This document shows, in pieces, positions 22,301 to 46,064 of a stretch of DNA of 60,334 nucleotides. The notes beneath the pieces are model-generated. The model saw only the letters and a list, made by a program, of their open reading frames with translations. It was not told where the DNA came from and searched no databases. Both the position numbers and the translations under genes were made by a program. The first letter of the stretch is position 1; each line of letters begins with the position of its first letter. Source of the DNA: Chloroflexota bacterium (lineage in GTDB: Bacteria; Chloroflexota; Dehalococcoidia; Bin125); contig JAPOXB010000100.1 in NCBI GenBank assembly GCA_026707335.1, positions 1-60,334 of the forward strand, read 5' to 3'.

Positions 22301-23593
22301 ATGCGCGCGGAGATCATCGCCATCGGGACCGAGATCCTGCTGGCGGACATCCAGGACAGCAACAGCCACTACATCGCGCAGCGGCTGCCGGCGCTGGGCG
22401 TCGACCTGTACTACATGCACCAGGTGGGCGACAACGTCGAGCGGCTGAGCGGGCTGATCCGCACGGCGCTCGACCGCTCCGACGTGGTGCTCTGCACGGG
22501 CGGACTGGGGCCGACCGAGGACGACGTCACGCGCGACGCCATCGCGCGGGCGGTCGGCGAGGAGGCGCGGGTCGACGTGGAGGCCGAGGCGACGCTGCGC
22601 GCGTTCTTCTCGCGGCGCGGCAGCGAGATGCCGGCGCGCAACATCAAGCAGGCGACGATCATCCCTTCGGGCACGATCCTGCCCAACCCGCGCGGCACGG
22701 CGCCGGGCTGGTGGGTCGAGAACGCCGATGGCATCGTCGTCGCGATGCCGGGCCCGCCGGCCGAGATGACCGGCATGTGGGCCAACGAGGTCGCGCCGCG
22801 GCTGGCCGCGCGCAGCGACGGCGACGTGATCATCAGCCGCACGCTGAAGACCGTGGGGATCGGCGAGGCGACGGTCGATGAGATGGCCAGCCCACTGCTC
22901 AAGAGCCGCAATCCGACGGTGGGCGTCTACGCCAAGGCCGACGGCGTCCACCTGCGGCTGACCGCCAAGGCCGCCACCGAGGCCGCGGCCCGCGCCCGCA
23001 TCGAGCCCATCGAGGAGCAGGTGCGGGCGCTGTTCGGCACGGCCGTCTGGGGCGCCGACGAGACGACGCTGGCCGGCGGGGTGGGCGACCTGCTGCGGGA
23101 GCGCGGCCTGAGCGTCGCGGTGATGGAGTCGCTGACGGGCGGGCTGCTGGCCAGCACGCTGACCGACGTCGCCGGGTCGAGCGACTATTTCCGCGGCGGC
23201 CTCGTGACCTACAGCGAGGCGACCAAGATCCGCTACGGCGTGCCGGCCGACACGATCGCCGAGCACGGCGTGGTCAGCGAGCAGACGGCGGTCGCGATGG
23301 CGGAAGCCGTGCGCGAGGCGCTCGGAGCCGACATCGGCATCGGGATCACGGGCGTGGCCGGGCCGGCGACGCACGGCGGCCGGCCGGTCGGGACGACGCA
23401 CATCGGCGTCGCCACCGCGACGGGGCGCTCGCACTCGGAGTATGTGTTTGCCCAGACGCGGGCGGCGATCAAGCGGCGGGCCGTGACGTCGTGCCTGCTG
23501 CTGCTGCGGCGCGCGGCGCTGGGCCAACTGCGGGAGAAGGAGTTGATCTTCGCCCGCTCGCGCGAGGACGCGCAACGGGCCGGGTCGGCCTGA
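22301..23593 (+). CDS. cinA: Competence/damage-inducible protein CinA (MoCF-binding domain plus PncC NMN amidohydrolase domain)
   Basis: 430 aa. Motifs AEIIAIGTEILL, TGGLGPTEDDVTRDA, GTAPGW and ESLTGGLLAS....AGSSDYFRGG. Confidence 0.93.
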   Translation: MRAEIIAIGTEILLADIQDSNSHYIAQRLPALGVDLYYMHQVGDNVERLSGLIRTALDRSDVVLCTGGLGPTEDDVTRDAIARAVGEEARVDVEAEATLRAFFSRRGSEMPARNIKQATIIPSGTILPNPRGTAPGWWVENADGIVVAMPGPPAEMTGMWANEVAPRLAARSDGDVIISRTLKTVGIGEATVDEMASPLLKSRNPTVGVYAKADGVHLRLTAKAATEAAARARIEPIEEQVRALFGTAVWGADETTLAGGVGDLLRERGLSVAVMESLTGGLLASTLTDVAGSSDYFRGGLVTYSEATKIRYGVPADTIAEHGVVSEQTAVAMAEAVREALGADIGIGITGVAGPATHGGRPVGTTHIGVATATGRSHSEYVFAQTRAAIKRRAVTSCLLLLRRAALGQLREKELIFARSREDAQRAGSA

Positions 23594-26137: not shown

Positions 26138-27172
26138 ATGAACTCCCAGCCCGCCATGCTCGACGACTGCCGGGTGCTGCCGATCTCACTGGGGGCGAAC
26201 TGGGTCTACGCGCTGCCCGCCGCCGACCCGGCCCGCGACGGCATCCTGCTGGTAGACGCCGGGCCCGACTACGACGGCGCCTGGGAGGCGCTGACGGCCC
26301 AGCTCGAGGCGGCGGGGCTGACCCCCGACGACGTCCGTACGGTCGTCGTGACGCACGCCCACATCGACCACTGCGGGCTCGCCCGTCGCTGGCAGGAGAT
26401 GGGGGCGGAGGTCGTCGGGTCGGCGGCGGAGGTCGAGCGCTTCGCGCAGGGCGACCGGGTGGTCCGCTACCAGGAGGACCTCATCGATGGGTTGCTGCGG
26501 GAGGCGGGCTTCCCGGACGAGCGGCGCGAGGAGGCGCTGCGTCGGCGGCGACGCGCCGGCCGCAGCAAGCAGGACGCCGCCCGCGACCGCTGGCCGGCCG
26601 TGCTGCGCGGCACGCCCTTCGCGCCGGACCGCGCCCTGGAGGACGGCGACGTTCTGACCATCGGCGAGCGACAACTGCGCTTCGTCGCCGCGCCGGGGCA
26701 CACGCCGGGCAACGCGGTGTGCCTGGAGGAGGCGTCGGGCTCACTGTTCAGCGGCGACCAACTGCTGCCGCGGATCACGCCCAACCCCGGCATCCACTTC
26801 TTGCGCCCGGACGAGCGCTTCCGCGGCCTGCCCGGCTACACGCGATCGCTGGAGCGCATCGCGACGCTGGGCGCGGAGCACCTCTACCCGGGCCATGGCG
26901 AGCCGCGTCAGACGCCGGTCGGGCAGGCGATCCGCTGGACGCTCGCGCGTCACACGCAGCGGCGGGATCGCCTGCTGCGCTGCCTGCGCGACGGGCCGCT
27001 CACCCCCTACGAGTTGCTGCTCCAGTTCTTCCGCCCGCGGCCGGACGCCCGCCTGCTGCCCGCCTTCGCCGAGGTGCAGGGGCACATCGACGTGCTGCTG
27101 GAGCGCGGGGAGATCGTCGAGGAGCAGTCCGAGGGCGCGGTGCAAGTGCGCCTGGCCGGCGCTACTGGGTGA
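26138..27172 (+). CDS. MBL-fold metallo-hydrolase with C-terminal winged-helix-like extension
   Basis: 344 aa. Motifs VVVTHAHIDHCG (HxHxDH), APGHTPG and PGHG. Confidence 0.85.
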   Translation: MNSQPAMLDDCRVLPISLGANWVYALPAADPARDGILLVDAGPDYDGAWEALTAQLEAAGLTPDDVRTVVVTHAHIDHCGLARRWQEMGAEVVGSAAEVERFAQGDRVVRYQEDLIDGLLREAGFPDERREEALRRRRRAGRSKQDAARDRWPAVLRGTPFAPDRALEDGDVLTIGERQLRFVAAPGHTPGNAVCLEEASGSLFSGDQLLPRITPNPGIHFLRPDERFRGLPGYTRSLERIATLGAEHLYPGHGEPRQTPVGQAIRWTLARHTQRRDRLLRCLRDGPLTPYELLLQFFRPRPDARLLPAFAEVQGHIDVLLERGEIVEEQSEGAVQVRLAGATG

Positions 27173-30100
27173 GGCGGCGGTAGAGGGAGGGCAGGCGGCG
27201 CGGCAGCGACTCGATGTCGCCGACGACCTCGTAGCCCATGTCCTCGCACATCTGCTTGAGGTAGTCGTGCCCGGCCCGGTCGACGGTGAGGCAGAAGGGG
27301 GTCATGCCCTCGCGGCGGGCCTCGGTGAGCGCCATCTTGGTGTCGTGGATGGCGTACTCCTTCTCCGTGCGGTCGCGCCCGTAGCCGTGGTCCTGGGGGC
27401 GGCCGTCCGAGAGCAGCACCAGGATCTGCACCTTGGCGGCGGTCTGCTTGAGCTTGTAGATGCAGTGCCGGATGGCCGGACCCATGCGCGTGCTGCGCAC
27501 CGGTGCGACCTTGTCGAGCCGCTCCTTGGCGTCGTTGTTGAGCGTCTCGTCCATGTCCTTGATGACGAAGAATTCCACGTTGTCGCGGCCGTAACCGCTG
27601 AAGCCGTAGACGCCGTAGGTATCGCCGATCGTCTCCAGCGCCTCGATCAGCAGGACGGCGGCCTCCTTCTCCAGGTCGATGATGCGCTTGGCCGGGTGGC
27701 GCGCGTCCTGCGCCCGCTTCTGCGCCCACCAACTCAGGTACTTGCGGGGGTCGTCGTCGAAGTTGTTGTCCGTCCCCTCGGGACGGGGCTGGTGCTTGGT
27801 GATCTCCTCGTCGGTCGAGGCCGACATGTCCAGGAGGAACGCTACCGCGACGTCGCGCTCCACCTTGTTGCGCCGGTAGTAGAGCTTGGCCTCCGACTGC
27901 GCCTGCGCCTTGCGCTCGACGATCCACTCGATCACGCCGTCCAGGTCGTAGTCGTCGCCGTCGGGCAGCCGCTTGATCTTGCGGAACATCTCGGGCTTGA
28001 GCTGCTCGAACTGGCGCCGCGTCTCCTGCACCAGTTGCGCGTAGTCGGACAGGGTGCGCTGGTAGTAGTCGATCTCGCCGTGCTCCATGCGCATCTCCTG
28101 CACGCGGCACCAGCGGGGCTTGTAATCGGAGGCGCGGAAGTCCCACTCGTCGTAGTAGAACGACTCGGCGATCTCCGGCAGCGGCTCGCCGCTGTCCTCG
28201 GGGTCGCTGCCGTCGCCGCGCTTGCCCGCCTGCTGCTGGGCGGCCTGCTGGATCTGCTGCTCGACCTCCTTCATCAGGTTGTCGAGGAACATCCCCGACG
28301 ACTCGTCCAGGTCGCCCTCCGACAACTCCGTGATGTTGATCTCGGTCGACTTCTCCAGCAGCTCCTGCAGTTGCTCCTTGCTCAGTTGCACGGGCGGGGT
28401 ATCGCCGTCGCCCATCTGCTGGTTCTTGAGCTTCATCAGCAACTGCACGAGCTCCGGCTTGAAGTCGCCGCGGAAGTCGATCGGCTCGGGCGACTCGTAG
28501 GGCTGCTCCTCGCCCTGGGGCAGGTTGGGCTGGTACGACTCCATCTGGCCGTCGCCGCTGCCGGGGCCGATGTCGACCATCTCCTCGTCGGCCGCCCCCT
28601 CCGTCATCTCCGACCAGTCGGCCTCGTCCAACTCCACGTTGGGGACCTGCCGGATCCAGTCGTAGAGCACGCGGGTGGCGGCGCCGGAGTCCTCGACGGT
28701 CGCGCCCTCCTCGCGGATGCGGCCCAGGATGCCCAGCGGGCGCTGCATGACCGCGTGCAGCTCGGCGGGCCAGTGCAGCCGCAAGCCCTCGTCGAGCGAG
28801 GCGCGCAGCAGGTTCTCGATCATCGCCTGGCGGACGGGCATCTCCTCCAGCGGGCGGCGCCTTTCGAGGGCGGCCTCCTGCAGCCGCGACATCGGCCGGC
28901 GGATGCCCGCGTACTCGCGCTTGACCATCGTGTCGATGCGGGTGTCCTCGACGATGGTGAAGATGTCGTGCGCCAGCCGGCGGTCGGCGAAGCCGTCGAA
29001 GAAGCGCTCCATGGCCGTGACGGCCTCGGCCTGCTCGGGGTCGCGCGCGGGGGCGTCCTCGCGAGCGGCGCGCTGGAAGATGCGCCCCGGCCGGGCGTAA
29101 TCGAAGGCGAAGGAGCCGAACTCCAGGCGCGCGGCCTGATGCGTGGCGAAGACCTTGTAGACCGCGAAGTTCTCGTCCTTCTCGGTGTACTGCTCGACGG
29201 TCGGCGGCAGGTAGATGGCCGTGCCCTCCGTCGTGGGGCTGCTCTCGTCGACCCAGCCGACGCCCTTCTCGGCCAGCTGCTCGGCCGAGTGCACGGCCAC
29301 GTCGGCGCCGGTCAGCGCCTTGCAGTACATGCGGATCAATTCGGAGACGCGCTCCAACTCCACCCGCGACGAGAGCGCCTCGATGATGTCCTCGCCCTTG
29401 GACGACTCCAGGCGGAAGAAGGCCTCGCCGCCGTCGGGGCTCACGTCCAGGATCTGCCGGCCCGCCTCCTGCCAGCGCGGCAGGTCCTCGGGGCGCAGCC
29501 GCCGCAGCACCTCGGGGGCGGACTTGACGAACTCCATCGCGGCGATGCCGGAGGTGGGCGCGATGCCCTCGGCCAGTTCGAGCATGTCGCGGTGGGCGTC
29601 GCGGTCGATCTCCGCCAGCGACTGCGCGGCCTCCATGAAGTAGGGATGCCCCAGCCGCCCCACGCCGACCGCCACGCGGCCCGCCAGGGCCAGGAAGCGC
29701 GCCCGCTGCTGCGGGTGCAGATGGCGCACCAGCGTGGGTCCGCGCTCGAAGTAGACGCGCGCGTCGACCCAGGCCGTGCCCGCGACCACGGAACCGAACT
29801 CCAGGAACGGCGCCCGGTCGGGCCGGTCGAGCTGGCCCAGCACGTCGGGCGACATATTCAGGCAGGCGCTGGCCAGTTCGTAGGAGTGGCCGGCCAGCGA
29901 CTCGACCAGGTCGACCAGCAGCCGCATCTGGTTGAGCGGCAGTTGGGGCAGCACTTGGGGGCTGACCTCGAAGTACTGCGCGGCCAGCGAGCCCGACTTC
30001 CAGGTGCCCTTGTAGAGCGAGCGCCCCTGCGCCGCCCAGTCGGGCGCCTGCGTGACGGAGAGGTATTGCAGCGAGGCGGGGCTCGACCGGAAGTAGGCCC

Positions 30101-30419
30101 CGGCCAGCGCCGGCGAGGCCTCGACGAGTTCCACGCCGGTGCGGGTCCACTCGCGGAAGCGGCTGAAGGTCAGCCGCTCCAGCATGCCGGGGCTGGCGCG
30201 GAAGTACTCGCCCGCCGCCTCCCAGGAGCGCAGCGAGTGCCGCGCGATCTCGACGCCGTCGTCGGCCCACGAGGCGAGTTCCTGCGGGGCCAGGACCGGC
30301 GCCAGGGCGCCGCGCGCGGCCTCGTAGTCCTGCTGCAGGCTGGGCGGGAACGCGCCCAGGGCCTCCTGCGCCCGGTCGAGCGTGTCAGCCACGGGGCACC
30401 AGCCGGGGAGGGAGGGCAT
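27162..30419 (-). CDS. NorD/CbbO-type VWA-domain protein (1085 aa)
   Basis: N-terminal degenerate helical repeats (YFRASPGMLERL, YFRSSPASLQYL, YFEVSPQVLPQL ...). Acidic low-complexity linker. YDEWDFRASDYKPRWCRVQE motif. C-terminal VWA with MIDAS FLLDMSASTD ... LLSDGRP. ATG lies 3 nt after the upstream stop. Confidence 0.85.
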   Translation of the reverse strand: MPSLPGWCPVADTLDRAQEALGAFPPSLQQDYEAARGALAPVLAPQELASWADDGVEIARHSLRSWEAAGEYFRASPGMLERLTFSRFREWTRTGVELVEASPALAGAYFRSSPASLQYLSVTQAPDWAAQGRSLYKGTWKSGSLAAQYFEVSPQVLPQLPLNQMRLLVDLVESLAGHSYELASACLNMSPDVLGQLDRPDRAPFLEFGSVVAGTAWVDARVYFERGPTLVRHLHPQQRARFLALAGRVAVGVGRLGHPYFMEAAQSLAEIDRDAHRDMLELAEGIAPTSGIAAMEFVKSAPEVLRRLRPEDLPRWQEAGRQILDVSPDGGEAFFRLESSKGEDIIEALSSRVELERVSELIRMYCKALTGADVAVHSAEQLAEKGVGWVDESSPTTEGTAIYLPPTVEQYTEKDENFAVYKVFATHQAARLEFGSFAFDYARPGRIFQRAAREDAPARDPEQAEAVTAMERFFDGFADRRLAHDIFTIVEDTRIDTMVKREYAGIRRPMSRLQEAALERRRPLEEMPVRQAMIENLLRASLDEGLRLHWPAELHAVMQRPLGILGRIREEGATVEDSGAATRVLYDWIRQVPNVELDEADWSEMTEGAADEEMVDIGPGSGDGQMESYQPNLPQGEEQPYESPEPIDFRGDFKPELVQLLMKLKNQQMGDGDTPPVQLSKEQLQELLEKSTEINITELSEGDLDESSGMFLDNLMKEVEQQIQQAAQQQAGKRGDGSDPEDSGEPLPEIAESFYYDEWDFRASDYKPRWCRVQEMRMEHGEIDYYQRTLSDYAQLVQETRRQFEQLKPEMFRKIKRLPDGDDYDLDGVIEWIVERKAQAQSEAKLYYRRNKVERDVAVAFLLDMSASTDEEITKHQPRPEGTDNNFDDDPRKYLSWWAQKRAQDARHPAKRIIDLEKEAAVLLIEALETIGDTYGVYGFSGYGRDNVEFFVIKDMDETLNNDAKERLDKVAPVRSTRMGPAIRHCIYKLKQTAAKVQILVLLSDGRPQDHGYGRDRTEKEYAIHDTKMALTEARREGMTPFCLTVDRAGHDYLKQMCEDMGYEVVGDIESLPRRLPSLYRRLTQ

Positions 30420-30422
30420 CGT

Positions 30423-31040
30423 TCATCGGCCGCGGCTCCCCGAGTGCTTCGCGATGGTCCGGGTGGGATCGGAGAAGTCGCCGATCTGCACGGCGTCGGT
30501 CTCCGTGTCCAGCACAGCATAGGAGACCTGGAAGTCGTTGTTCGGATCTCGCGGGTCGCCGATGGAGCCGGGGTTCACGACCAGCGCCCGCCCGATCCGC
30601 CGCGCCATCTGGTAGTGCGTGTGTCCGTAGATGATGTAGTCGGCCTCCTCGGCGGCGAGTTTGCGCAGCTCCGGGCTGGATGGGTACAGGTAGTCGCGGT
30701 TGGGTGCCCAGGGCGTGGCGTGGAACATCAGCAGGCGCTTGCCGCCCAGCTGCACGCGGATCGTCGAGGGCTGGGCGCGCGTCCACTCCAGCAACTCCTG
30801 GTCCACGCGCGGCGACTGCTGCGCGCGGATGCCCGCCGGGCTGAGCAGGATCTCCTCGTGGTTGCCCAGCACGTAGCGCGCGCCGACCTCGCGCAGGCGC
30901 GCGGCGACCTCGTTGGAGAAGCGGAACTGGTAGCAGGCGTCGCCGGCGCAGAGCAACTCATCGACGGCGCCCATCCGCTCGATGGCGATGTCGAGCGCCT
31001 CGATGTTGCCGTGTACGTCGGAGACGATGCCGAGCCGCAC
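30423..31040 (-). CDS. Metallophosphoesterase, YfcE/MJ0936-like
   Basis: 205 aa with the full motif set: SDVHGN, CAGDA, LGNHE, FHATP, YGHTH, NPGS. Confidence 0.9.
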   Translation of the reverse strand: MRLGIVSDVHGNIEALDIAIERMGAVDELLCAGDACYQFRFSNEVAARLREVGARYVLGNHEEILLSPAGIRAQQSPRVDQELLEWTRAQPSTIRVQLGGKRLLMFHATPWAPNRDYLYPSSPELRKLAAEEADYIIYGHTHYQMARRIGRALVVNPGSIGDPRDPNNDFQVSYAVLDTETDAVQIGDFSDPTRTIAKHSGSRGR

Positions 31041-31059
31041 GCCGCTACCCGGAGATCCG

Positions 31060-31956
31060 TTACTCGAAGATCGAGGAGATGACCTCCTCGATGCTGCGCT
31101 GCACGTCGCCGTCGTCGGTCAGGGCCCAGGCCACGGCGACCTGGCAGGCGCGGCGCGGCGCGATGCCGTTCTGGATCAGCTTGCCGGCGTAGATCAGCAG
31201 CCGCGTGCTGGCGCCCTCGGAGAGGCCGTGCTCGCGCAGGTTGCGCACCTTCTCCGCCATCTTGGCGAGGTTCATTGCGACGTCCATGTCGACGCCCGAC
31301 TCGTGCGCCACGATGCGCGCCTCCGTCTCGCGCGGCGGGTAGCCGAACTCGATCGAGATGAACCGCTGACGGGTGCTCTGCTTGAGGTCCTTGAGCGCGC
31401 TCTGGTAGCCGGGGTTGAAGGAGATGACCAGCAGGAAGCCGTCGCGCGCCTGCAGCAGCTGCGACTTCTTCTCGATCGGCAGGATGCGGCGGTGGTCGGT
31501 GAGGGGGTGGATGAGGACGGTCGTGTCCTTGCGCGCCTCCACGACCTCGTCCAGGTAGCAGATCGCGCCCGCCTTGACGGACCGCGCGAGCGGCCCGTCG
31601 ATCCACTTCGTCTCCTCGCCCTCCAGCAGGTAGCGGCCGACGAGGTCGCTGGCGGTCAGGTCCTCGTGACAGGCGACGGTGACCAGCGGCAGGTTGTCCT
31701 CGGACTCGATCACCTTGCGGCCGTCGCGGATGACGAGGGCCGGCCGGTTGAGGTGGTAGGCCATGTACTCGACGAAGCGGGTCTTGCCGCAGCCCGTGGG
31801 GCCCTTCAGCAGGACGGGCACCTTCGAGTCCCAGGCCGCCTGGAAGAGTTCCACTTCGTCCCCGACCGGCACGTAGTAGGGCTCCTCCTCGGCGCGGAAC
31901 TCCTCGACGGCCCAGGAGCGGTACTGCGTGATGGTGCCTTCGGAAGCGGTGGTCAT
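31060..31956 (-). CDS. CbbQ/NorQ/NirQ-type MoxR-class AAA+ ATPase
   Basis: 298 aa from ATG 31956 (GGAGAGGA SD upstream). Walker [32 protein letters not shown], Walker [16 protein letters not shown], and [21 protein letters not shown]. The 527-aa track ORF runs out of frame through coaE. Confidence 0.9.
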
Positions 31957-32015: not shown

Positions 32016-32627
32016 TCAGCCGGTCGCGGCGATCCGATCTTGCAGCGCGCTCCAGGCAGCTTCTACCCGGCCGCGGACTTGGTCCAGGGAACAGTCGGTG
32101 CGGATGACGACGTCGCCGCGCGCCTCCCGTTCGGCGTTGCCGAGTTGCGAGGCGATGCGCTTGCCCGCCTCCTCGGCGCTGAAGCCGTTGCGATCCATCA
32201 GCCGCTGCCTCGCGACGTCGGGCGGCGCGCTGATCACCCAGACCTCGTCGAAGTGGCTCTCCCAGCCCGCCTCGAACAGGACGGCGGCCTCCACCGCGGC
32301 CACGGACGCGCCGGCAGCGCGCGCCAGATCCAACTCCTCGTCGACGAGCTCGGCGATGGCGGGCCAGACGATGTCGGTCAGCTTGGTCATCTCCGTCGGC
32401 GCGCCGAACACCCTCGCGCCCAGCGCGGCGCGGTCGATCGTCCCGCCGGGGCCGACGATCTCCTCGCCGAAGGCGGCGACGACCTGGGCGTGCGCGGCCG
32501 CGCCGGGCTCGTACACCCGGTGGCCCAGCTTGTCGGCGTCGACCACCGTCGCGCCGAGGTCGGCCAGCGCGGCCGTGACCGTGGACTTGCCGGAGGCGAT
32601 CCCCCCGGCGAGACCGATCGAGCGCAT
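32016..32627 (-). CDS. coaE: Dephospho-CoA kinase
   Basis: 203 aa (GGGAGAG SD upstream). P-loop [12 protein letters not shown], then VVDADKLGH, then an R...R lid region. Confidence 0.93.
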
Positions 32628-32964: not shown

Positions 32965-33441
32965 ATGGTCGTTGAAGCGCTCAGCAGCACCGCCGACCTG
33001 GCCGACGCGCGCGAGAAGCTCGTGCAGAGCTTCGCCGGCCTCGACGACGCGCTGCTCGACCTGCCGGACGTGGTCGGGCGGTGGAGCATCCGCCAGACGC
33101 TGGCGCACCTGCTGGGCTGGGACGCCTGGGGCGTGATGGCGATCGTGGCGCTGGAGCGCGGCCGGGAGGTCGCGGAGCCCGACGACGACGCGATGAACCG
33201 GGACTGGTTGCGGCGCACGCGGTCACTGAGCGGCGCCGAGTTGCAGCGGCTGCTGCGCGCCTCCCGCCGCGAGATGCTCGACCTGCTGGCGGCGATGCCG
33301 GACGAAGTGCGGTCGCAACCGCGCTACGACCTGGGCGGCGCCATGCTGTCGCCCGACGAATTCGTCGACGGCTTCATCGACCACGACGCCGAGCACGCGT
33401 CGGAGATCCGCGCCTGGCGCAAGGCCCGCGGGAACGCCTAA
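32965..33441 (+). CDS. DinB-family (four-helix bundle, His-triad) protein
   Basis: 158 aa. WSIRQTLAHLLGWD and IDHDAEHASEI fit the DinB_2-type metal-binding histidines. Confidence 0.7.
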   Translation: MVVEALSSTADLADAREKLVQSFAGLDDALLDLPDVVGRWSIRQTLAHLLGWDAWGVMAIVALERGREVAEPDDDAMNRDWLRRTRSLSGAELQRLLRASRREMLDLLAAMPDEVRSQPRYDLGGAMLSPDEFVDGFIDHDAEHASEIRAWRKARGNA

Positions 33442-34424
33442 GCGTCGGCGACCAGCCGCTTGAGTTCCGCCTCCAACTGGGGCAGCACCTTCTTGTAGTC
33501 ATCGACGATGCCGAAGCGCGAGTAGCGGAAGATGTTGGCGTCGGGGTCCTTGTTGATCGCGACGATGTTCTTGCTGCCGCCGCAGCCGGCCATGTGCTGA
33601 CTGGCTCCGCTGATGGCGATGGCGACGTACAACTCTGGCGACACCACGGTGCCCGTCAGCCCCACCTGCTGGCTGGGCGGGTACCAGCCCAGGTCGCAGG
33701 CGGCGCGGCTGGCCCCCACGGCGGCGCCGAGATCGGCGGCGATGCGCTCCAAGTCGGCGAAGGCCTCGGGCGCGCCCAGGCCGCGGCCGCCGGATACGAC
33801 GATGCCGGCGTCCTCCAGCCGCACCCCGGCCGAGTCGGCGGTCTCCTTCTCCAGCAGGCGGGCGCGCGCGGCGCCCGGGGCCGCCGCCACCGGCACGACC
33901 TCCCCCGTGCGGCCGGCGTCCTCCGGCAGCGGATCCTGCGACTTGGCACGCACCGTCACGACCTGCGGGTCGCTCTCCACGGTGACGACCTGGCGGGCGT
34001 TGCCGCCGTAGCAGGAGCGCGTGACCCGCACGCGGCCGTCGCCGGCCTCCAACTCCAGCGCGTCCATGGCGACGGCGCTGCCCAGCCGGGTGGCCAGCCG
34101 CGGCGCGAGGTCGCGGCCCATGCTCGTCTGGCCGAAGAGCACGACGGCCGGCGCCGCCTGCTCGACGATCGCCGCCGCGACGGGCAGATAGGCGTCGGCG
34201 CCGTACTGCGCGAGGGCGGCGTCCTGGGCCGTGTAGACGGCGCCCGCGCCGGCGGCGATGGCGGCCTGCGCCACGGCGTCCAACTCCGCGCCGATCAGCG
34301 CGCAGGCAACGCCGTCGCCGCCGAGGGCGGCGTTGAGACGCGTCGCGGCGCCCAGCAGTTCGGCCGTGATGGCGGCCGGGCCGCCGCCGGGGGCGCTCTC
34401 TCCGAAGACGAGGATGCTGGCCAT
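33438..34424 (-). CDS. etfA: Electron transfer flavoprotein alpha subunit
   Basis: 328 aa from ATG 34424. FAD-binding C-terminal region VVSGGRGLG, GASRAACDLGW.P...QVGLTG..VSP.LYVAIAISGASQHMAG. Confidence 0.92.
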   Translation of the reverse strand: MASILVFGESAPGGGPAAITAELLGAATRLNAALGGDGVACALIGAELDAVAQAAIAAGAGAVYTAQDAALAQYGADAYLPVAAAIVEQAAPAVVLFGQTSMGRDLAPRLATRLGSAVAMDALELEAGDGRVRVTRSCYGGNARQVVTVESDPQVVTVRAKSQDPLPEDAGRTGEVVPVAAAPGAARARLLEKETADSAGVRLEDAGIVVSGGRGLGAPEAFADLERIAADLGAAVGASRAACDLGWYPPSQQVGLTGTVVSPELYVAIAISGASQHMAGCGGSKNIVAINKDPDANIFRYSRFGIVDDYKKVLPQLEAELKRLVADA

Positions 34425-34473
34425 GGGGGTTTCTTTCCGACGCACTATCCGGCGCCGCCGGGCCGCGGCCCGG

Positions 34474-35280
34474 CTAGACGAGCTTGGCTTCGCGCAGTTT
34501 GGCGGCGAGCAGACCGGCCTTCTCCTCGGCGGTGTCGGCCTCGATGAACTCGCACTCGGTCTCGTTCCGCGGCTGGTAGAGGGCGTGCATCTTGACGCGC
34601 GCCCCGGTCGCGCCGATCTCGCCCGGGTCGAGGCCGAGGTCGGCGGGGGTCCACACAGTGACCTGCTTGCGCGCCGCCTGCATGATCTGGCGCAGCTGCG
34701 GGTAGCGCGGGTCGCCGAATTCGTTGCTGATCGTGAGTACGGCGGGCGTCGGCGTGCTGATCGACTCGAAGCCGTCGGCGACGACGCGCGACACGCGGAT
34801 CTCGCCGTCGGCCAGCTCGGCCGAGCGCAGCACCGTCACGGAGGGCAGGCCGAGCAGCTCCGCCACGATGCTGCCCACCGTCCCCTGGTCGAGGTCGGCG
34901 GCCTGGCGGCCGAAGATGAGCACGTCGGGCAGGCCGATCTTCTCGATCGCCTTGGCCAGCGCGAGGGCCGTCGTCCAGGCGTCGCCGCCCTCGAAAGCGG
35001 GGTCGTTGAGCTGGTAGCCCTCGTCGGCGCCCATCGCGAGGCCGGTCTTGATGGCGTCGCGGGCGGAGTCGGGCCCCAGCGACAGCACGGAGATCGTGCC
35101 CGCGCCGCCGTCGGCCTCGCGCAGTCGCAGGGCGGCCTCGACGGCCTGCTGGTCGAAGGGGTTGATCACGGGCGAGACGCCGGGCGCCTCGACCACCCGC
35201 ATCGCCGCCTCATCGACGCTGAAGGCGGCGGCGGGCGTCTCCGGGTCGGGGATCTGTTTGACGCAGACGATCGCGTCCAT
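34474..35280 (-). CDS. etfB: Electron transfer flavoprotein beta subunit
   Basis: 268 aa from ATG 35280 (AAGGAG SD upstream). IVCVKQIPDPETP, VINPFDQQAVEAALRL and LIFGRQAADLDQGTVG are present. Confidence 0.92.
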   Translation of the reverse strand: MDAIVCVKQIPDPETPAAAFSVDEAAMRVVEAPGVSPVINPFDQQAVEAALRLREADGGAGTISVLSLGPDSARDAIKTGLAMGADEGYQLNDPAFEGGDAWTTALALAKAIEKIGLPDVLIFGRQAADLDQGTVGSIVAELLGLPSVTVLRSAELADGEIRVSRVVADGFESISTPTPAVLTISNEFGDPRYPQLRQIMQAARKQVTVWTPADLGLDPGEIGATGARVKMHALYQPRNETECEFIEADTAEEKAGLLAAKLREAKLV

Positions 35281-35357
35281 CGTGCATGCTCCTTGACGCC
35301 GGCGGGGGCGTGCGCGGCGATCCTCGTGCCGCCCGCGGCGCGCATCCAGCCGGGGGC

Positions 35358-35386
35358 ATTCTTGCGCCGCGACGGGGCCCAATCAA
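35358..35386 (-). promoter_or_regulatory. Candidate promoter of etfBA (TTGATT-N17-AAGAAT)
   Basis: On the minus strand, TTGATT is at 35386..35381 and AAGAAT at 35363..35358, with a 17-nt spacer. It lies about 80 nt upstream of the etfB ATG. Confidence 0.35.
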
Positions 35387-35395
35387 ACGGCTGCG

Positions 35396-37684
35396 TTACG
35401 GAGCGGCCCCGGACGGCGGTTCGGCGGCCGGCTCGCCCTCGGGCAGGGCCACGTCGAGCAGCTCCACGACGTCGAACACGCCCAGCCGCTGCGACTCGTC
35501 GGTCCCCATCTGCACGCTGCCGACGCCGGCCTCGAACATCTGCACGCAGAAGGGGCAGACCGTGCAGGCGCTGTCGGCGCCGGTGTCCAGCGCTTCCGCG
35601 ACGCGCACCTCGTTGACGCGCGCCCGTCCCTGCTCCTCCATCCACATGTTGCCGCCGCCGGCGCCGCAGCAGAGCCCCCGCTCGCGGTTGCGGGGCATCT
35701 CCACGAGCGTCAGGTTGGGGATCTGCTTGAGGATGTTGCGGGGGGCCTCGTAGAGGTTGTTGTGGCGGCCCAGGTAGCAGGAGTCGTGGAAGGTGACGGT
35801 TTGCGCCGCGGCGCCGGGCTTGGGCCGCAGCCTGCCCTCCTCGACGAGCCGCTCCAGCAGGGTGCTGTGGTGCAGCACCTCGTAGTGCCCGCCCAGGTCG
35901 GGGTACTCGTTCTTGAACGTGTTGAAGCAGTGCGGGCAGTGGGTGACGATCTTCTTGACGCCGCCGCCGTCGAGCGTGGCGATCAACCCCTCGGCCAGGA
36001 TCTGGAAGAGGTATTCGTTGCCCAGCCGCCGGGCCGGGTCGCCGTTGCACGACTCCTGCCCGGCCAGCACGCCGAAACTGACGCCCGCCTCGCGCAGCAG
36101 CCGCACGACGGAGCGGGTGATCGGCTGCACCCGATCGACCAGGGCGCCGGTGCAGCCCACGAAGTAGAGGTACTCTTGCTCGCCCGTCCAGCGCGGCACG
36201 TCCAGCCCGTCCATCCACGACTCGCGGGTGTGCGGCGTGCCGCGCCAGGGATGGCCCTGGCGCTCCAGCGTCTCCAGCGTCGATTGCACGGTGTCGGGCA
36301 TGCGCGCCTCCTCCATGACGAGGCTGCGGCGCATGTCGACGATCGTGGGGATGTGCTCGATGAACACGGGGCACTCCTGCACGCAGGCCCCGCAGGTCCG
36401 GCAGGCCCAGAGCGACTCGTCGCGGATCACCTCGCCGACCATGACCGGCGCGTCGTCGAGGCCGTCATCGATCGGCGCCCCGCGGGCGAGGTTGCCCGCC
36501 TTGCGCTCGCCCACGTCGGTCGCGTACGTCTTGAGGTCCTGGATGATGTGCATCGGCGAGAGCGGCTGCCCGGCGATGTCGGCCGGGCAGTGATCGGTGC
36601 AGCGGCCGCAGCGCACGCAGACGTCCAACTCGAAGAGTTGCTTCTGGGTGAAGTGTTCGAGCTGGCTGACGCCGAAGTGCTCCTGCTCCTCGATGTTGGC
36701 GATGAGCGGCAACTTGCCGCTGGAGCCGGGGCTCTTGAGGAAGGCGTTGGCCGGCGCGAGCGCGAGATGGTTGAGCTTGGTGAAGCCCAGCAGGCCGATC
36801 CAGCTCAGCGCCAGAACCATGTGGAACCACCACAGCGCCTTGTGGGCAGCGAGCAGCGCGGCGGTCTCGACGCCGCCCACGGCCAGCGCGACCACGAAGC
36901 CCACCGGCGACCAGTAGGACCAGTCGCGGTGCTCGGCGATCTCCGACGTCTGGATGCGGAAGCCCTCAAGCAGGAAGCCAGTCACCAGCAGCAGGCCCAG
37001 CCCGCCCAGGATCAGCTTGTCCTCGGTGCTGGGCAGCCAGGTCGTGCGGGGGCGGACCCAGCGGTGCGCGACGGCCATGCCCACGCCGATCAGCCCGATC
37101 AGCCCGAACAGGTCGCCCACCAGCGAGTAGCCCAGATAGCGGTCGCCGACGAGGATGCGCACCTTGTCGTCGGGCAGATAGTCGTCGATGGCCAGTAGGG
37201 CGGTGACGAGGAACAGCACCAGGATGCTGGACATGATGCAGAGATGCATGACGCCGGCGTAGGGGTCGCGCAGGACGCGCTCGGTGCCGGCGCCGCCGCG
37301 CAGCATGCGGCGCAGACGCACGCGGGGCTGGTCGAAGTGGAAGTCGGGGCGGCCGATGCGCCACACCCGCGCCCGTCGCGCCACGCCGTAGACGACGACG
37401 GCCACGAGCAGCGGCAGCAGCGCGTAGAGCACCCAGAAGTCGGCGATGTTGAAGAACAACTCGCGGTGGGGGCCGTCGATGCGGCCCGTCTCCGCCGCCG
37501 TCACGAGGCCGAGCCCGGCCAGCGGCACCCAGATCGGCACCGCGATGCCGCCGATCTTCACCGTGCGGCGCAGGCGGCCGCGCCTCACCGGCGTGGGTGG
37601 CGGCGGATCCTCGGGGTGCGATGGGCACCCGCCCGCGGCGGGACGGCCGATCGGCAGCGGACCACGAGGCGCGGCAGGCGGCAC
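35396..37684 (-). CDS. Membrane-anchored Fe-S oxidoreductase, HdrD/GlpC/DsrK-like (EtfD-like)
   Basis: 762 aa. N-terminal multi-TM (NarI-like) domain. Two ferredoxin motifs, CVRCGRCTDHCP and CRTCGACVQECP. Two CCG domains (VGCTG..., HCPHCFNTF; FHDSCYLGR, CCGAGGG). The N-terminal start (GTG 37684) is uncertain. Confidence 0.85.
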   Translation of the reverse strand: MPPAAPRGPLPIGRPAAGGCPSHPEDPPPPTPVRRGRLRRTVKIGGIAVPIWVPLAGLGLVTAAETGRIDGPHRELFFNIADFWVLYALLPLLVAVVVYGVARRARVWRIGRPDFHFDQPRVRLRRMLRGGAGTERVLRDPYAGVMHLCIMSSILVLFLVTALLAIDDYLPDDKVRILVGDRYLGYSLVGDLFGLIGLIGVGMAVAHRWVRPRTTWLPSTEDKLILGGLGLLLVTGFLLEGFRIQTSEIAEHRDWSYWSPVGFVVALAVGGVETAALLAAHKALWWFHMVLALSWIGLLGFTKLNHLALAPANAFLKSPGSSGKLPLIANIEEQEHFGVSQLEHFTQKQLFELDVCVRCGRCTDHCPADIAGQPLSPMHIIQDLKTYATDVGERKAGNLARGAPIDDGLDDAPVMVGEVIRDESLWACRTCGACVQECPVFIEHIPTIVDMRRSLVMEEARMPDTVQSTLETLERQGHPWRGTPHTRESWMDGLDVPRWTGEQEYLYFVGCTGALVDRVQPITRSVVRLLREAGVSFGVLAGQESCNGDPARRLGNEYLFQILAEGLIATLDGGGVKKIVTHCPHCFNTFKNEYPDLGGHYEVLHHSTLLERLVEEGRLRPKPGAAAQTVTFHDSCYLGRHNNLYEAPRNILKQIPNLTLVEMPRNRERGLCCGAGGGNMWMEEQGRARVNEVRVAEALDTGADSACTVCPFCVQMFEAGVGSVQMGTDESQRLGVFDVVELLDVALPEGEPAAEPPSGAAP

Positions 37685-37736
37685 GGTGGGCCTCCCCCCA
37701 GCCCCCGCCGAAGCCGGGGCGCGCGGCGGGCGCAGG

Positions 37737-39299: not shown

Positions 39300-39467
39300 G
39301 CCCGACCCTTCCGGCGGGCGTCCGCCTGCGCGGAGGCGCCGCTACTTGCGATCACGCTGCTCTGGCCCACGCCCTCGCGCGGGCGTCGTCGCTCCGCAGT
39401 TGGGGATACCGCCTGCGCGCGTTGGCGTCCAGCGTAGCGAGCCGCGGCTGCGCCGGATCGGACGCGG

Positions 39468-39890
39468 CTAGCCGCGCGGCTCCAGCACCACGACCGGGAT
39501 CCGTCGCTCCGTCTTCGCCTGATAGTCGGCGTAGCGCTTCGCGGTCTCCGCGAACGCCGCGAACAGGCGATCGCGCTCCTCGCCTTCGGCCATCCGCGCC
39601 TGCACGGACGTCGTCTGCTTGCCGACGCGCACCTGCGCCTCGGGCGCGGCCGCGAGGTTCAGGTACCAGGCGGGGTGTTGGTCGCGGCCCGCCGCCGACC
39701 CGACCACCACGTAGCCGCCGTCCTGGTCGAGGCACAGGAGGGGGGTCGTCCGGCGCTTGCCGCTCTTCCGGCCGGTGGTCGTCAGCAGCAGGATCGGCAT
39801 CTGGTCGAAGCTGCTCATCAGACGGCCGCCGCTGTGGCTGTAGATGCACTTGTGCAGCCCGGTGAACGTCTTCTCGAACAAGTTGGGCAT
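39468..39890 (-). CDS. Deazaflavin (F420H2)-dependent nitroreductase family protein (DDN/FDOR-A)
   Basis: 140 aa from ATG 39890 (GAGGGGA SD upstream). TTTGRKSGKRRTTPL and HPAWYLNL are signature DDN-family motifs. Confidence 0.85.
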   Translation of the reverse strand: MPNLFEKTFTGLHKCIYSHSGGRLMSSFDQMPILLLTTTGRKSGKRRTTPLLCLDQDGGYVVVGSAAGRDQHPAWYLNLAAAPEAQVRVGKQTTSVQARMAEGEERDRLFAAFAETAKRYADYQAKTERRIPVVVLEPRG

Positions 39891-39966
39891 CGCGTTCCCC
39901 TCGCTCCCGCGGACGCCGCGCGCCCGCACTGCTACAACGTTGGGCCCCCGGCGGGACCCGGGCAAG

Positions 39967-40722: not shown

Positions 40723-40733
40723 GGCGGGGCCCG

Positions 40734-40976
40734 TCAGCGCCAATCGGGGCGGCGGATCTCGCTCTTGCGCCGCACCTCCCAGAGGCGCGAGATGTCGGCG
40801 TTGATCTTCTCCTGCAGGGCGCGCATCTCCTCGCTGGCGGTGCGCATCTCGTTCGTCTTCCAGCGCCGGACCTTGGCGCGGTCCGACTTGTCCATCGGCA
40901 CGTCCTTGAGCATGTAGTTGACGATGAAGGACATCATCTCCCACGACTCATCGACGTTGAATTCAATTTGGGCCAT
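40734..40976 (-). CDS. Hypothetical small protein P1 (80 aa), paralog of the adjacent 90-aa ORF
   Basis: Balanced amino-acid composition, unlike the Arg/Pro/Ala shadow ORFs. High GC3 in frame with locally lower overall GC. MAQIE N-terminus, VRRWKTNEM core and EIRRPDW C-terminus align with P2. Confidence 0.7.
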   Translation of the reverse strand: MAQIEFNVDESWEMMSFIVNYMLKDVPMDKSDRAKVRRWKTNEMRTASEEMRALQEKINADISRLWEVRRKSEIRRPDWR

Positions 40977-41013
40977 GGCTGCGGCTCGCTTTCGGCGGCG
41001 TGCGCGGACGGAC

Positions 41014-42154: not shown

Positions 42155-42216
42155 GCCTGCCGCTCTCCTCCGCAGGATCGCCGCTTCGGCGGCGCGCCGC
42201 AACAGGGAAGTGCGCG

Positions 42217-45516: not shown

Positions 45517-45555
45517 GCCGCGCAACGTCCGCCGCCGGGAGATCGCGCCGCCGCC

Positions 45556-46047: not shown

Positions 46048-46064
46048 ACGAGGGAGCGTGAGCG

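Follow-up and report, generated by a model that had tools for sequence, protein, structure and literature searches.

Gene layout of the coaE-Q-MPE-D locus

The window analysed is a 60-kb stretch of DNA with 72% GC. Three of its ORFs, Q, MPE and D, are co-directional on the minus strand, and coaE lies upstream of them (Table 1). The intergenic gaps along coaE-Q-MPE-D are 59, 19 and 3 nt, and no terminator-like site was found between the four genes of the module. The GC3 values of Q, MPE and D (0.94–0.97) are like those of the other real genes of the window. The earlier note, made from the sequence alone, had described the last three genes with gaps of 19 nt (Q/MPE) and 3 nt (MPE/D); its coordinates are exact, the Pfam and structure matches agree with its gene identities, and all motifs quoted there, including the MIDAS DMSAS, are found in the sequences. 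It had also reported no classical client of such a pair, and this holds: every candidate ORF of sufficient size in the window was annotated, and none proved to be a gene for Rubisco, NOR, CODH or a chelatase. The MBL-fold gene is convergent with D and overlaps its 3′ end by 11 nt. Such a gene adjoins D in 12 Chloroflexota loci only, and a shorter, co-directional MBL gene lies 3′ of D in a Spirochaetota locus.

Table 1. Genes and protein features of the locus (positions in the window).
Feature	Position	Strand	Evidence
coaE, dephospho-CoA kinase; module gene 1, 59 nt upstream of Q	32016..32627	-	Pfam CoaE 3.1e-44; TIGR00152
Q, CbbQ/NorQ-type MoxR AAA+ ATPase, 298 aa	31060..31956	-	AAA_5 + CbbQ_C
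Q Walker A / P-loop GPTGCGKT, residues 52-59	31780..31803	-	sequence
Q insertion after Walker-A helix, 18 residues (73-90)	31687..31740	-	gap in 5c3c, 6l1q, 9qh4 alignments
MPE, YfcE/MJ0936-type binuclear metallophosphoesterase, 205 aa; variable accessory-hydrolase slot between Q and D	30423..31040	-	PF12850, TIGR00040
D, NorD/CbbO-type VWA adaptor, 1085 aa	27162..30419	-	NorD 9qhd_G match
D extra N-terminal alpha-helical repeat (solenoid) domain, residues 9-347	29379..30395	-	AF2 pLDDT >90, ~18 helices
D middle alpha/beta domain, residues 350-610	28590..29372	-	AF2 pLDDT ~80-90; profile search
D acidic linker, residues 611-750, mostly low-confidence	28170..28589	-	24% D+E, 6% K+R; pLDDT mostly <60
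D beta-hairpin 'finger', residues 752-775 (YYDEWDFRASDYKPRWCRV)	28095..28166	-	modelled as two long strands
D VWA domain + MIDAS + C-terminal tail (LPRRLPSLYRRLTQ)	27165..27857	-	Pfam VWA; NorD alignment over 910-1083
MBL-fold hydrolase gene; system membership uncertain	26138..27172	+	Lactamase_B 9.8e-23

The ATPase and its VWA adaptor

Q contains the Pfam domains AAA_5 (1.8e-29) and CbbQ_C (3.6e-31). The best-scoring solved relative is CbbQ 5c3c (6e-101, about 68% identity outside the insertion), and NorQ 9qh4 is matched at 1e-89, P-loop and cysteine pair included. Homology shows Q to be a CbbQ/NorQ-type ATPase, predicted to be hexameric. Its residues C56 and C96 align onto C46 and C68 of NorQ, which form an inhibitory disulphide acting as a redox switch (PMC13036017). 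Q identity across 80 genome loci is 67–96%. Whatever the operon type, each Q whose partner is a giant D carries an insertion of 6–23 residues at the same site.

In D, Pfam detects only the VWA domain (1.6e-5); residues 751–1083 match the solved NorD 9qhd_G at 3e-36 with a single sequence and at 5e-69 with a profile. Homologues of D amount to 1856 representatives of 50% clusters at E<=1e-30, and the full-length ones, from several phyla, share 27–92% identity. The earlier note put the excess of D over CbbO/NorD proteins at about 300 aa. Measured against solved NorD (638–646 aa), D has about 440 aa more, and by a comparison of lengths with CbbO2 of A. ferrooxidans (759 residues per PMC5437159), about 325 aa more. 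The added helical-repeat N-terminus accounts for roughly 345 aa, and the acidic linker is also longer than in NorD. YF..SP..L repeats lie at residues 72, 109, 149, 223 and 260 of D. Foldseek gave no more than generic helical-repeat resemblance for this solenoid, which is missing both from NorD and from short D forms (~730 aa), whose match begins at D residue ~345.

In profile searches, positions 401–432 align weakly with NorD 90–121, and positions 483–654 match CobT 9uka_G at 6e-5; judging from these matches, the middle domain is the predicted counterpart of the NorD/CobT N-terminal domain. The linker occupies the same position as that of NorD, which is essential for function (PMC13036017). 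The hairpin aligns with NorD region 351–375, N-terminal of the VWA domain, and its YDEWD..Y..W.C residues are invariant across clades; from its position, it probably corresponds to the finger-like VWA extension that penetrates the AAA+ pore in NorQD (PMC13036017). The MIDAS residues D864, S866, S868, T977 and D1005 are invariant in 13 divergent clade representatives, and relative to NorD, the VWA domain carries a 36-residue insertion after the DxSxS motif. D is thus shown by homology to be a NorD/CbbO-type protein, the predicted adaptor of Q, with a finger, a C-terminal tail and an intact MIDAS. Q and D together are a separate branch of the CbbQO/NorQD family, marked by the Q insertion and the extra N-terminus of D.

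The likeness of both proteins to NorQ and NorD, which insert FeB into cytochrome c nitric oxide reductase (cryo-EM structures 9qh4–9qhg; PMC13036017), is accompanied by a difference in context: the constant neighbour here is coaE, and no nor genes were found in the window or in about 170 loci. Similarly, no Rubisco gene was found in the window or the examined loci, despite the similarity of Q to CbbQ (5c3c, 6l1q) and one VWA adaptor per hexamer in both systems. The CobS/CobT and BchI/BchD chelatases also combine an AAA+ motor with a VWA subunit bearing an acidic linker; however, window annotation revealed no CobN/BchH-type catalytic subunit nearby, and the VWA domain and finger of D are much closer to those of NorD.

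Conservation of the operon and the position between Q and D

The coaE product passes the TIGR00152 equivalog cut-off (142.9 versus 65.55 bits), as do all Q-linked CoaE proteins of the Chloroflexota, metagenome and Tectomicrobia loci; no features set them apart from ordinary CoaE, and they are plain members of this family. The earlier note regarded coaE as a mere flank, which does not agree with its distribution. Among loci having Q and adequate flanks, coaE is directly upstream of Q in 59 of the 61 Chloroflexota loci and 26 of the 36 metagenome loci, and in Tectomicrobia/Entotheonellaceae it lies directly downstream of D (PHP-Q-D-coaE or D-coaE). Of the 80 Chloroflexota genome loci, 60 have the whole coaE-Q-MPE-D order, down to D identities of 52–55% and with the outer flanks replaced. 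The Q-MPE-D triad is retained by about 65 species-level genomes and metagenome contigs of the Chloroflexota. The module is single-copy and vertically conserved, and its surroundings, which include an essential gene, are of a fixed housekeeping kind. The linkage concerns the long, solenoid-bearing D (short forms with adequate flanks, 0/4). Overall, coaE is the most constant partner of Q-D.

Most of the loci with a linked coaE come from a single phylum, and a wider synteny (ETF...coaE-Q-D...CinA-ComB-PyrF) is also kept across much of the Chloroflexota set, so part of this signal reflects shared ancestry. Q-D might then serve an unlinked client, for example a respiratory or other metalloenzyme complex, with coaE and the hydrolases being lineage-inherited neighbours. 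The clients of RavA-ViaA are reportedly encoded away from RavA-ViaA (PMC3893208), and no CoA-related neighbour occurs at 16 Q-D loci, whose surroundings are uninformative, or beside the short D forms. We regard this explanation as unlikely, although it retains some weight: coaE-Q-X-D persists through the replacement of the outer flanks, coaE has been re-linked in another order in Tectomicrobia, and the genes inserted independently between Q and D have repeatedly been CoA-related ones.

MPE matches Metallophos_2 (PF12850, 5.7e-29) and exceeds the TIGR00040 (YfcE) cut-off (63 versus 56.25 bits). Its catalytic motifs D8xH10, GD34, GNHE, H97, GHTH and NPGS are invariant in 67 orthologues. The nearest solved relatives are 3qfm, 3rqz and YfcE 1su1; the entry 3qfm, titled 'Putative uncharacterized protein', is presumably SapH, an Ap4A hydrolase/phosphodiesterase.

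The gene between Q and D is variable. In sister Chloroflexota, a Nudix gene stands exactly there (coaE-Q-Nudix-D, nine loci and five more on cut contigs). The best NCBIfam match of these proteins is the CoA pyrophosphatase NF007980, with scores of 93–124 bits, below the curated equivalog cut-off of 134 bits, and their signature LLxKRSxxVxxHKGExSFPGG is like that of the CoA Nudix enzymes of the NudL/Pcd1/NUDT7 type. Two of these loci also hold an acyl-CoA-synthetase-alpha-like protein with CoA_binding_2 and Succ_CoA_lig. In Tectomicrobia, a PHP phosphoesterase is encoded beside Q. In compact coaE-Q-D operons the slot is empty, with Q and D overlapping by 8 nt and MPE cleanly missing; these are the operons of a whole nested clade (about 15) and that of a close relative, locus L043 (D 70% identical). 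The operon types track the D phylogeny, and the loss of MPE is nested inside MPE-bearing lineages, so the empty slot looks like a secondary loss. Comparative genomics thus shows that the MPE position is an accessory-hydrolase slot, occupied by MPE or Nudix or left empty. Outside the coaE-linked operons, Q-D is found immediately behind an enoyl-CoA hydratase gene in Gammaproteobacteria (ECH-Q-D, six loci), and a complete Pseudomonadota genome contains an abhydrolase-ECH-Q-D-...-TPP-enzyme operon. Other contexts comprise one Acidobacteria locus and one molybdoenzyme-adjacent locus.

The earlier note proposed that Q-D is a metallation or remodelling machine dedicated to the binuclear phosphoesterase or, alternatively, a three-component NTP-dependent module. 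The embedding of MPE between Q and D and its retention in the triad are in line with the former, as is the handling of metals by kin: NorQD inserts non-haem iron, and CoxD/E and chelatases also handle metals (PMC13036017). However, a dedicated MPE chaperone does not explain the presence of three unrelated hydrolase folds in or near the slot, nor a slot with nothing in it, and the neighbourhood survey found MPE missing from L043 and the nested clade while Q and D are kept. D, N-terminal extension included, shows the same conservation over its full length whether or not the lineage has MPE. YfcE-type enzymes, moreover, normally load Mn2+ by themselves. We therefore consider a dedicated MPE machine improbable; MPE is probably an exchangeable accessory hydrolase and not an obligate client. 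What stands from the earlier note are the gene identities, the lack of a classical client in the window and the fallback to a module of unknown role, which is nearer the truth, although the module has four genes and a recognisable CoA theme.

By the rule that MoxR/VWA pairs adjoin their client, CoaE itself might be the client. Q-D would then remodel or regulate dephospho-CoA kinase (release of tightly bound product, oligomeric state), while the hydrolases of the slot would adjust the CoA pool the other way. In line with this, coaE is the most constant neighbour, across two phyla that differ in gene order; it goes with the long D, and the compact operons offer no other candidate. On the other hand, CoaE, a small P-loop kinase (about 200 aa), lacks a metal centre and is not known to require a chaperone, there is nothing distinctive in the CoaE proteins concerned, and ECH-Q-D and many other Q-D operons have no coaE. 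This makes such a role rather improbable.

A possible CoA-linked remodelling system

As the best explanation, we tentatively propose that coaE-Q-MPE-D is one operon for a CoA-linked AAA+/VWA remodelling system, its functional links being drawn from gene neighbourhood. In NorQD, the finger, the C-terminal tail and the MIDAS of the adaptor insert into and dock on the AAA+ ring and hold the client, and ATP-driven rotation stretches the acidic linker, prying the client open (PMC13036017); client engagement by CbbQO depends on the MIDAS (PMC5437159). By comparison, Q6-D would open a CoA-dependent enzyme blocked by a dead-end CoA species, with the helical-repeat N-terminus of D as the likely platform binding the client or a partner. 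The accessory hydrolase would then destroy the ligand set free, and CoaE, with CoaD encoded elsewhere, would remake CoA from salvaged 4′-phosphopantetheine. This cycle is suggested by analogy with CbbQO/Rca and the XuBP phosphatase CbbY, a model for a remodeller combined with an inhibitor-destroying phosphatase. Q-D may accordingly be an ATP-driven remodeller that serves the turnover or repair of CoA; MPE would break down a nucleotide derived from CoA, and CoaE would make CoA anew.

On this view, MPE would depend on Mn/Fe and cleave such a nucleotide as a pyrophosphatase or phosphodiesterase, the candidates being CoA, its oxidised or acylated forms, dephospho-CoA and 3′,5′-ADP. Its fold is unrelated to that of the Nudix proteins, and a substrate common to both is suggested by their shared slot. 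There is precedent for Nudix/MPE equivalence: Ap4A hydrolases include both Nudix enzymes and the MPE ApaH, and ADP-ribose pyrophosphatases include both Nudix enzymes and the MPE ADPRibase-Mn. We know of no MoxR/VWA system acting on a CoA enzyme, and no description of a coaE-linked Q-D operon was found in the literature; the locus points to an undescribed CoA-linked job for a Rubisco-activase-like ATP motor.

The MoxR-vWA ternary conflict systems (Kaur, Burroughs, Iyer, Aravind 2020; PMC7159879) likewise unite a MoxR AAA+ with a vWA protein, and some of them add a phosphoesterase of the calcineurin type, a common effector there; MPE could accordingly be pictured as a nucleotide-degrading effector of a defence system. 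This is disfavoured as highly improbable. The PADLOC matches of Q are weak and at the P-loop level (E 9e-5 to 9e-3), those of MPE and D are absent, and the locus has no third adaptor and no VMAP/iSTAND component. The fixed housekeeping context is also unlike that of a conflict system, and Q falls in another branch of MoxR, that of CbbQ/NorQ.

Gene block and properties of the encoded proteins

Three co-directional genes, encoding a CbbQ/NorQ-type AAA+ protein (Q), a YfcE-type metallophosphoesterase (MPE) and a NorD/CbbO-type VWA protein (D), are separated by 19 nt and 3 nt, as described in the earlier note. The dephospho-CoA kinase gene coaE is located just upstream of Q. The GC3 values of Q, MPE and D (0.94-0.97) are the same as those of the other real genes in this window of 72% GC. 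A scan of the 26.9-33.0 kb region revealed neither promoter-like sites nor terminators between the genes, which supports their co-transcription and is otherwise uninformative. The window also contains gyrA, Rex, MreB, MurA, the ATP synthase operon, PyrF, ComB, CinA, GNAT, PadR, DinB, RuvB and ABC exporters.

Coordinates of the genes and protein regions discussed (window positions unless a compared locus is named)
Feature	Position	Strand	Residues or length	Remarks
coaE	32016-32627	minus		flank of Q
Q	31060-31956	minus	298 aa
Q, P-loop motif with Cys56	31780-31803
Q, Cys96	31669-31671
Q, insertion			73-90
MPE	30423-31040	minus	205 aa
D	27162-30419	minus	1085 aa
D, all-helical repeat domain (solenoid)			9-347	AF2; YF..SP..L repeats at 72, 109, 149, 223, 260
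D, alpha/beta domain			350-610	AF2 model
D, acidic linker			611-750	low confidence in AF2; 24% D+E
D, long beta-hairpin (finger)			752-775	AF2 model; aligned with NorD 351-375
D, VWA domain			C-terminal to hairpin	AF2 model
D, insertion in VWA domain	27714-27821		874-909
MBL-fold gene	26138-27172	+		convergent with D; 11-nt overlap with D 3' end on opposite strand
CinA	22301-23593			MoCF_biosynth, CinA_KH and CinA domains
CoA-ester metabolism genes	33438-41286 and 41432-51064			upstream of coaE
MBL gene, locus L083	9132-9797
Histidine phosphatase gene, locus L079	13797-14426
CinA, locus L112	6732-7988
DnaJ/Hsp20 genes, locus L115	7501-8562
DnaJ/Hsp20 genes, locus L120	5814-6377
Cyclophilin-type isomerase, locus L101	2970-3746
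Cyclophilin-type isomerase, locus L147	6322-7098
c83, locus L050	8879-9319		146 aa

The Q protein contains the AAA_5 (PF07728, 1.8e-29) and CbbQ_C (PF08406, 3.6e-31) domains with the Walker motifs GPTGCGKT and YLDEVVEAR. It aligns end to end with the solved CbbQ/NorQ proteins (5c3c, 6e-101; 6l1q, 3e-94; 9qh4, 1e-89) save for an 18-aa insertion, and it bears all three hallmarks of the CbbQ/NorQ (CGN) subfamily of MoxR AAA+ ATPases, including a VWA partner: D is located two genes downstream, and in the operons lacking MPE it adjoins or overlaps Q. The additional residues, which distinguish Q from both CbbQ and NorQ, are located immediately behind the Walker-A helix, and wherever Q is accompanied by a giant D, whatever the operon type, an insertion of 6-23 residues is present at this place. 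Cys56 of the P-loop and Cys96 align with C46 and C68 of NorQ, which form an inhibitory, ATPase-blocking disulphide (PMC13036017). The P-loop cysteine is replaced by A, T or V in several of the compared loci (L083, L141, L154, L157, L159 and L164); a redox switch, if any, is therefore not universal in the family.

MPE belongs to the YfcE/MJ0936 metallophosphoesterases. It passes the YfcE model TIGR00040 (63 bits, cut-off 56.25) and PF12850 (101.6 bits, cut-off 27), and the catalytic motifs of the binuclear site are all invariant in 67 orthologues. The nearest solved structures are 3qfm (titled 'Putative uncharacterized protein'), 3rqz and YfcE; we take 3qfm to be SapH, an Ap4A hydrolase/phosphodiesterase. 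The CoaE of the window scores 142.9 bits with the TIGR00152 equivalog (cut-off 65.55).

As for D, the search in Pfam gives only a weak VWA match. Its residues 751-1083 align with the solved NorD 9qhd_G (3e-36), including the MIDAS and the C-terminal tail, and the YDEWDFR sequence of D is paired with YPEWDTR of NorD. The family profile of D matches NorD at 5e-69, including a weak stretch (positions 401-432 against NorD 90-121), and CobT 9uka_G weakly (6e-5, positions 483-654). Since the profile matches both NorD and CobT there, the middle alpha/beta domain is the counterpart of the NorD/CobT N-terminal domain. The AF2 model has a mean pLDDT of 75, with values above 90 for the solenoid. Judging by the sequence alignment and the modelled hairpin, D appears to share with NorD/CbbO the hairpin preceding the VWA domain and the C-terminal tail. 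However, NorD and CbbO consist of an N-terminal domain, a linker and a VWA domain in about 640-770 aa, whereas the longer D has an added helical-repeat domain ahead of the NorD/CobT-like domain. It is this solenoid that accounts for the 'giant' size of D. In a Foldseek search of the PDB with the AF2 model, the NorD VWA domain alone was significant; the matches of the N-terminal solenoid were to helical repeats in general (mTERF, designed repeats), so its fold provides no functional clue.

The MIDAS of D (DxSxS...T...D) is intact, and its residues D864, S866, S868, T977 and D1005 are invariant across divergent clades, as is the finger sequence YDEWD..Y..W.C. In comparison with NorD, the VWA domain of D contains a 36-residue insertion immediately after the MIDAS DxSxS (TKHQPRPEGTDNNFDDDPRKYLSWWAQKRAQDARHPA), inside which the DDDPRKYLSWW motif is conserved. 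A Rosetta-stone fusion to CoaE or a hydrolase was considered for family members of 1150-1170 aa and rejected, the extra length being more solenoid repeats.

Distribution of the family and exchange of the gene between Q and D

Exact copies of the window D were found on two ENA metagenome scaffolds, and it is 99% identical to the D protein of a Dehalococcoidia MAG (L003). A scan of one genome per species revealed 464 relatives, and the best 80 of them, which were analysed, all belong to Chloroflexota (Dehalococcoidia in the broad sense, Tepidiformaceae included). The genes coaE, Q, MPE and D occur in this order in 60 of these 80 loci, with D identity down to 52-55%, and five further loci end at a contig edge and are compatible with it. 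Seven loci have the order coaE-Q-D, MPE being absent from all 23 kb, and Q and D overlap by 8 nt in four of these; in a few loci D was found without a nearby Q. According to ORF clustering of the 80 loci, the only constant part is coaE-Q-MPE-D, while the flanks vary: ETF (electron-transfer flavoprotein)/DinB or HxlR/FO-synthase genes are located upstream, and an MBL gene, a large permease-like gene or a histidine phosphatase gene downstream. The D gene is present in a Tepidiforma sp. genome entry (P0108) and in Tepidiformaceae MAGs, with the operon visible at the MAG loci; the genus Tepidiforma has cultured members. Complete chromosomes that contain the operon include OZ244557.1, OZ252031.1 and OY820591.1.

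A profile search with the D family over 1.84 billion representatives of 50%-identity clusters revealed 1856 proteins at E<=1e-30, the top 150 of which each exceed 460 bits. Together with the more than 460 species-level genome matches, these clusters indicate a large and deeply conserved branch. Most homologues are full-length (950-1150 aa, 27-49% identity to D); in the short forms of ~730 aa the match begins at D residue ~345. The clades comprise Chloroflexota (the window clade, including marine TARA sequences), Tectomicrobia/Entotheonellaceae, Spirochaetota, Pseudomonadota/Gammaproteobacteria and Acidobacteria. Most members of the family are annotated in public databases as 'nitric oxide reductase activation protein NorD' or 'hypothetical'.

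The genomic context was surveyed by nine exact-protein look-ups and a metagenome scan of 80 loci, with ORFs typed by HMMs made from Chloroflexota clusters, and six operon types were distinguished. Type a, coaE-Q-MPE-D, is represented by about 65 loci in total, and the compact type b, coaE-Q-D, by about 18. In type c (nine loci and five on cut contigs), the slot between Q and D is occupied by a Nudix hydrolase of 196-218 aa, whose by far best NCBIfam match is the CoA pyrophosphatase NF007980 (93-124 bits, E to 4e-36, under the 134-bit equivalog cut-off). Its motif, LLxKRSxxVxxHKGExSFPGG, closely resembles what we take to be the CoA-Nudix signature. Two type c loci also hold a CoA_binding_2 + Succ_CoA_lig protein similar to the alpha subunit of ADP-forming acetyl-CoA synthetase (ACS). 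Type d, in which a gene of the PHP phosphoesterase family precedes Q-D-coaE, was found in Tectomicrobia-type loci (L086, L091, L096); D-coaE was found on seven cut contigs, and one Tectomicrobia MAG has the order abhydrolase-abhydrolase-D-CoaE. In type e (six loci of the gammaproteobacterial clade), overlapping genes encode enoyl-CoA hydratase (ECH), Q and D, and a complete genome contains the operon abhydrolase-ECH-Q-D-glyoxalase-abhydrolase-TPP-enzyme-PdxA. The remaining 16 loci (type f) have uninformative or other neighbours, including a molybdopterin oxidoreductase beside one Q-D, a Spirochaetota Q-D-MBL and an Acidobacteria Q-D followed by an uncharacterised 1354-aa protein. The CoaE proteins of the PHP- and Nudix-type operons and of a Tectomicrobia D-coaE locus (L170) score 154-168 bits with TIGR00152.

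The earlier note regarded coaE as a mere flank; in fact, it is the best-conserved partner of Q-D. Where flanks were adequate, coaE is adjacent in 59/61 Chloroflexota loci, in 26/36 metagenome loci with a long D and in 0/4 loci with a short D, a signal much of which stems from a single phylum whose synteny is extended. A CoA neighbour is lacking in many of the Q-D loci. In a neighbour-joining tree of 157 D proteins, the operon type tracks the D phylogeny: the outside branches are Q-D forms, Tectomicrobia and Gammaproteobacteria, followed by the Nudix group, and the crown is the MPE group, within which one MPE-less clade is nested; the locus L043 is a separate single loss.

These data bear on the earlier suggestion that Q-D is a machine dedicated to MPE. 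The Q-MPE-D triad is real and conserved, but MPE is neither constant nor unique in it. MPE has been lost while Q-D and coaE remain tightly coupled; sister lineages have Nudix in the slot, and another phylum has a PHP enzyme with Q-D. A docking site for MPE was sought as positions or regions of D decaying in MPE-less lineages, and none was found: there are 18 scattered substitutions, and regional conservation is unchanged. None of this is expected of a chaperone whose sole task is to load the MPE di-metal site.

A CbbQO Rubisco activase or a NorQD maturase of NOR would be expected beside its client, yet cbbL/S, cbbM and norC/B are absent from the 60-kb window and from the recurrent neighbours in ~170 loci; the annotation bears out the previous statement that the window encodes no Rubisco, NOR, CODH or chelatase. 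The ATP-dependent chelatases CobSTN/BchIDH differ in having a CobN/BchH catalytic subunit, the gene for which was not found in the window, and the likeness of D to CobT is weak and confined to the middle domain. A MoxR-vWA ternary conflict (anti-phage) system was also considered. PADLOC gave weak P-loop-level matches for Q and none for MPE or D, and this reading was therefore rejected; a third VMAP/iSTAND component is missing, and the context, which is conserved, housekeeping and vertically inherited instead of a variable island, also speaks against it.

Possible link to coenzyme A

Comparative genomics shows a genetic coupling of Q-D with CoaE and with hydrolases of nucleotide phosphoesters that replace one another. 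Almost every gene that independently enters or abuts Q-D binds or processes CoA, namely those of the Nudix resembling CoA pyrophosphatase, the ACS-alpha-like protein with its CoA-binding domain and the crotonase; this theme may extend to the alpha/beta hydrolases and to the TPP enzyme of the CoA-ester-type operon. Through guilt by association, this points tentatively to a CoA-linked system with MPE as an accessory, a reading that we consider a serious possibility, if somewhat short of probable. A specific mechanism of CoA activase or repair seems rather unlikely.

In the solved NorQD, NorQ is an ATP-driven hexamer with the hairpin finger of NorD in the pore and the C-terminal tail docked on the ring; ATP-driven rotation of the VWA domain relative to the N-terminal domain stretches the linker, and an acidic client residue is held by the MIDAS (PMC13036017). 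By homology, Q should form an ATP-driven hexamer, into the pore of which D should insert its finger, with the tail docked; turning of the VWA domain against the N-terminal domain would stretch the linker, while the MIDAS would grip an acidic residue of the client. Q-D would thereby remodel a CoA-dependent enzyme blocked by a dead-end CoA species, or CoaE itself, MPE would cleave a CoA-derived nucleotide and CoaE would finish CoA resynthesis. Nudix and MPE enzymes of equivalent function are known for Ap4A and ADP-ribose, and the closest functional analogy is CbbQO/Rca with the XuBP phosphatase CbbY. We propose, as a doubtful model, a CbbQO-like motor that frees CoA-dependent enzymes or CoaE of dead-end or damaged CoA species, with a coupled hydrolase (MPE, Nudix or PHP, depending on the lineage) destroying the evicted nucleotide and CoaE completing resynthesis. 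If true, this would be the first AAA+/VWA 'activase' for a cofactor, not a metal centre or Rubisco, and a CoA damage-control cycle kept in Chloroflexota and Tectomicrobia, with kin in the CoA-ester operons of Gammaproteobacteria.

Apart from the mechanism, Q-D forms a distinct branch within the CbbQO/NorQD machines, which is widespread, has structural signatures of its own and occurs in a CoA-related context that is new. In full-text literature searches, we found no account of a CbbQ/NorQ-VWA system tied to coaE, CoA pyrophosphatase or metallophosphoesterase, and nothing relevant on CbbQ, NorQ, MoxR or VWA proteins together with any of these three. To our knowledge, few AAA+ machines are as poorly understood as the MoxR/VWA remodellers, for which only a small set of clients is known (Rubisco, cNOR, CODH, chelatases, fumarate reductase/Complex I). 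Unlike these clients, the genomic partners of the Q-D branch are CoA enzymes. If functional, the CoA link would define a class of client not known before and add a layer to CoA homeostasis or repair, and it would account for 'NorD/NorQ' genes in non-denitrifying heterotrophs. The assignment sets right the systematic mislabelling of such proteins as 'nitric oxide reductase activation protein'. Being sufficiently small or modular, the four proteins all lend themselves to heterologous work, which makes the system tractable.

Further genes at the Q-D loci

Upstream of coaE, CoA-ester metabolism genes are abundant in the window; they encode ETF alpha/beta, an Fe-S/CCG oxidoreductase, an acyl-CoA synthetase, three or four enoyl-CoA hydratases, SDRs and an acyl-CoA dehydrogenase. 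The ETF-coaE-Q-D synteny recurs in many metagenome loci (ORF clusters 24/25). One MAG 'chromosome' (OZ219765.1) has the whole 23-kb region, with coaE-Q-MPE-D, at two loci (L021 and L026) ~2.9 Mb apart, which share ~85% of their nucleotides; the two copies stem either from a large ancient duplication or from two strains joined in a chimeric assembly.

An ORF (c83) is located between Q and MPE in nine Tepidiformales-like loci (L047, L050, L053, L055, L063, L074, L076, L078, L080). As a candidate fifth component it was set aside, since by eye it resembles the four-helix-bundle 'intervening-sequence' type and is absent elsewhere; it looks like a selfish or unrelated insertion.

Downstream of D, the MBL-fold gene stays adjacent in 12 Chloroflexota loci, and the Spirochaetota locus L083 has a shorter, co-directional MBL gene after D; the MBL gene may encode a further accessory hydrolase, or its position may be fortuitous. 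A gene of the histidine phosphatase superfamily, with best matches to alpha-ribazole phosphatase/PspA, is located directly 3' of D on the same strand in ~18 loci (L054, L055, L058, L060, L061, L070, L072, L076-L079, L116, L134, L141, L145) and is a further phosphatase associated with the module. In 19 metagenome loci (e.g., L112), CinA closely follows D in convergent orientation, and in the window it is about 3.5 kb downstream; the CinA family includes ADP-ribose pyrophosphatase and NMN deamidase activities. In L101 (between Q and D) and L147 (between Q and MPE), there is a gene for a cyclophilin-type peptidyl-prolyl isomerase, the N-terminal segment of which is signal/lipoprotein-like. DnaJ and Hsp20 genes are located immediately 3' of D in several Nudix-type and Q-D loci (L115, L120, L129, L132, L149, L160), which hints at a proteostasis link.
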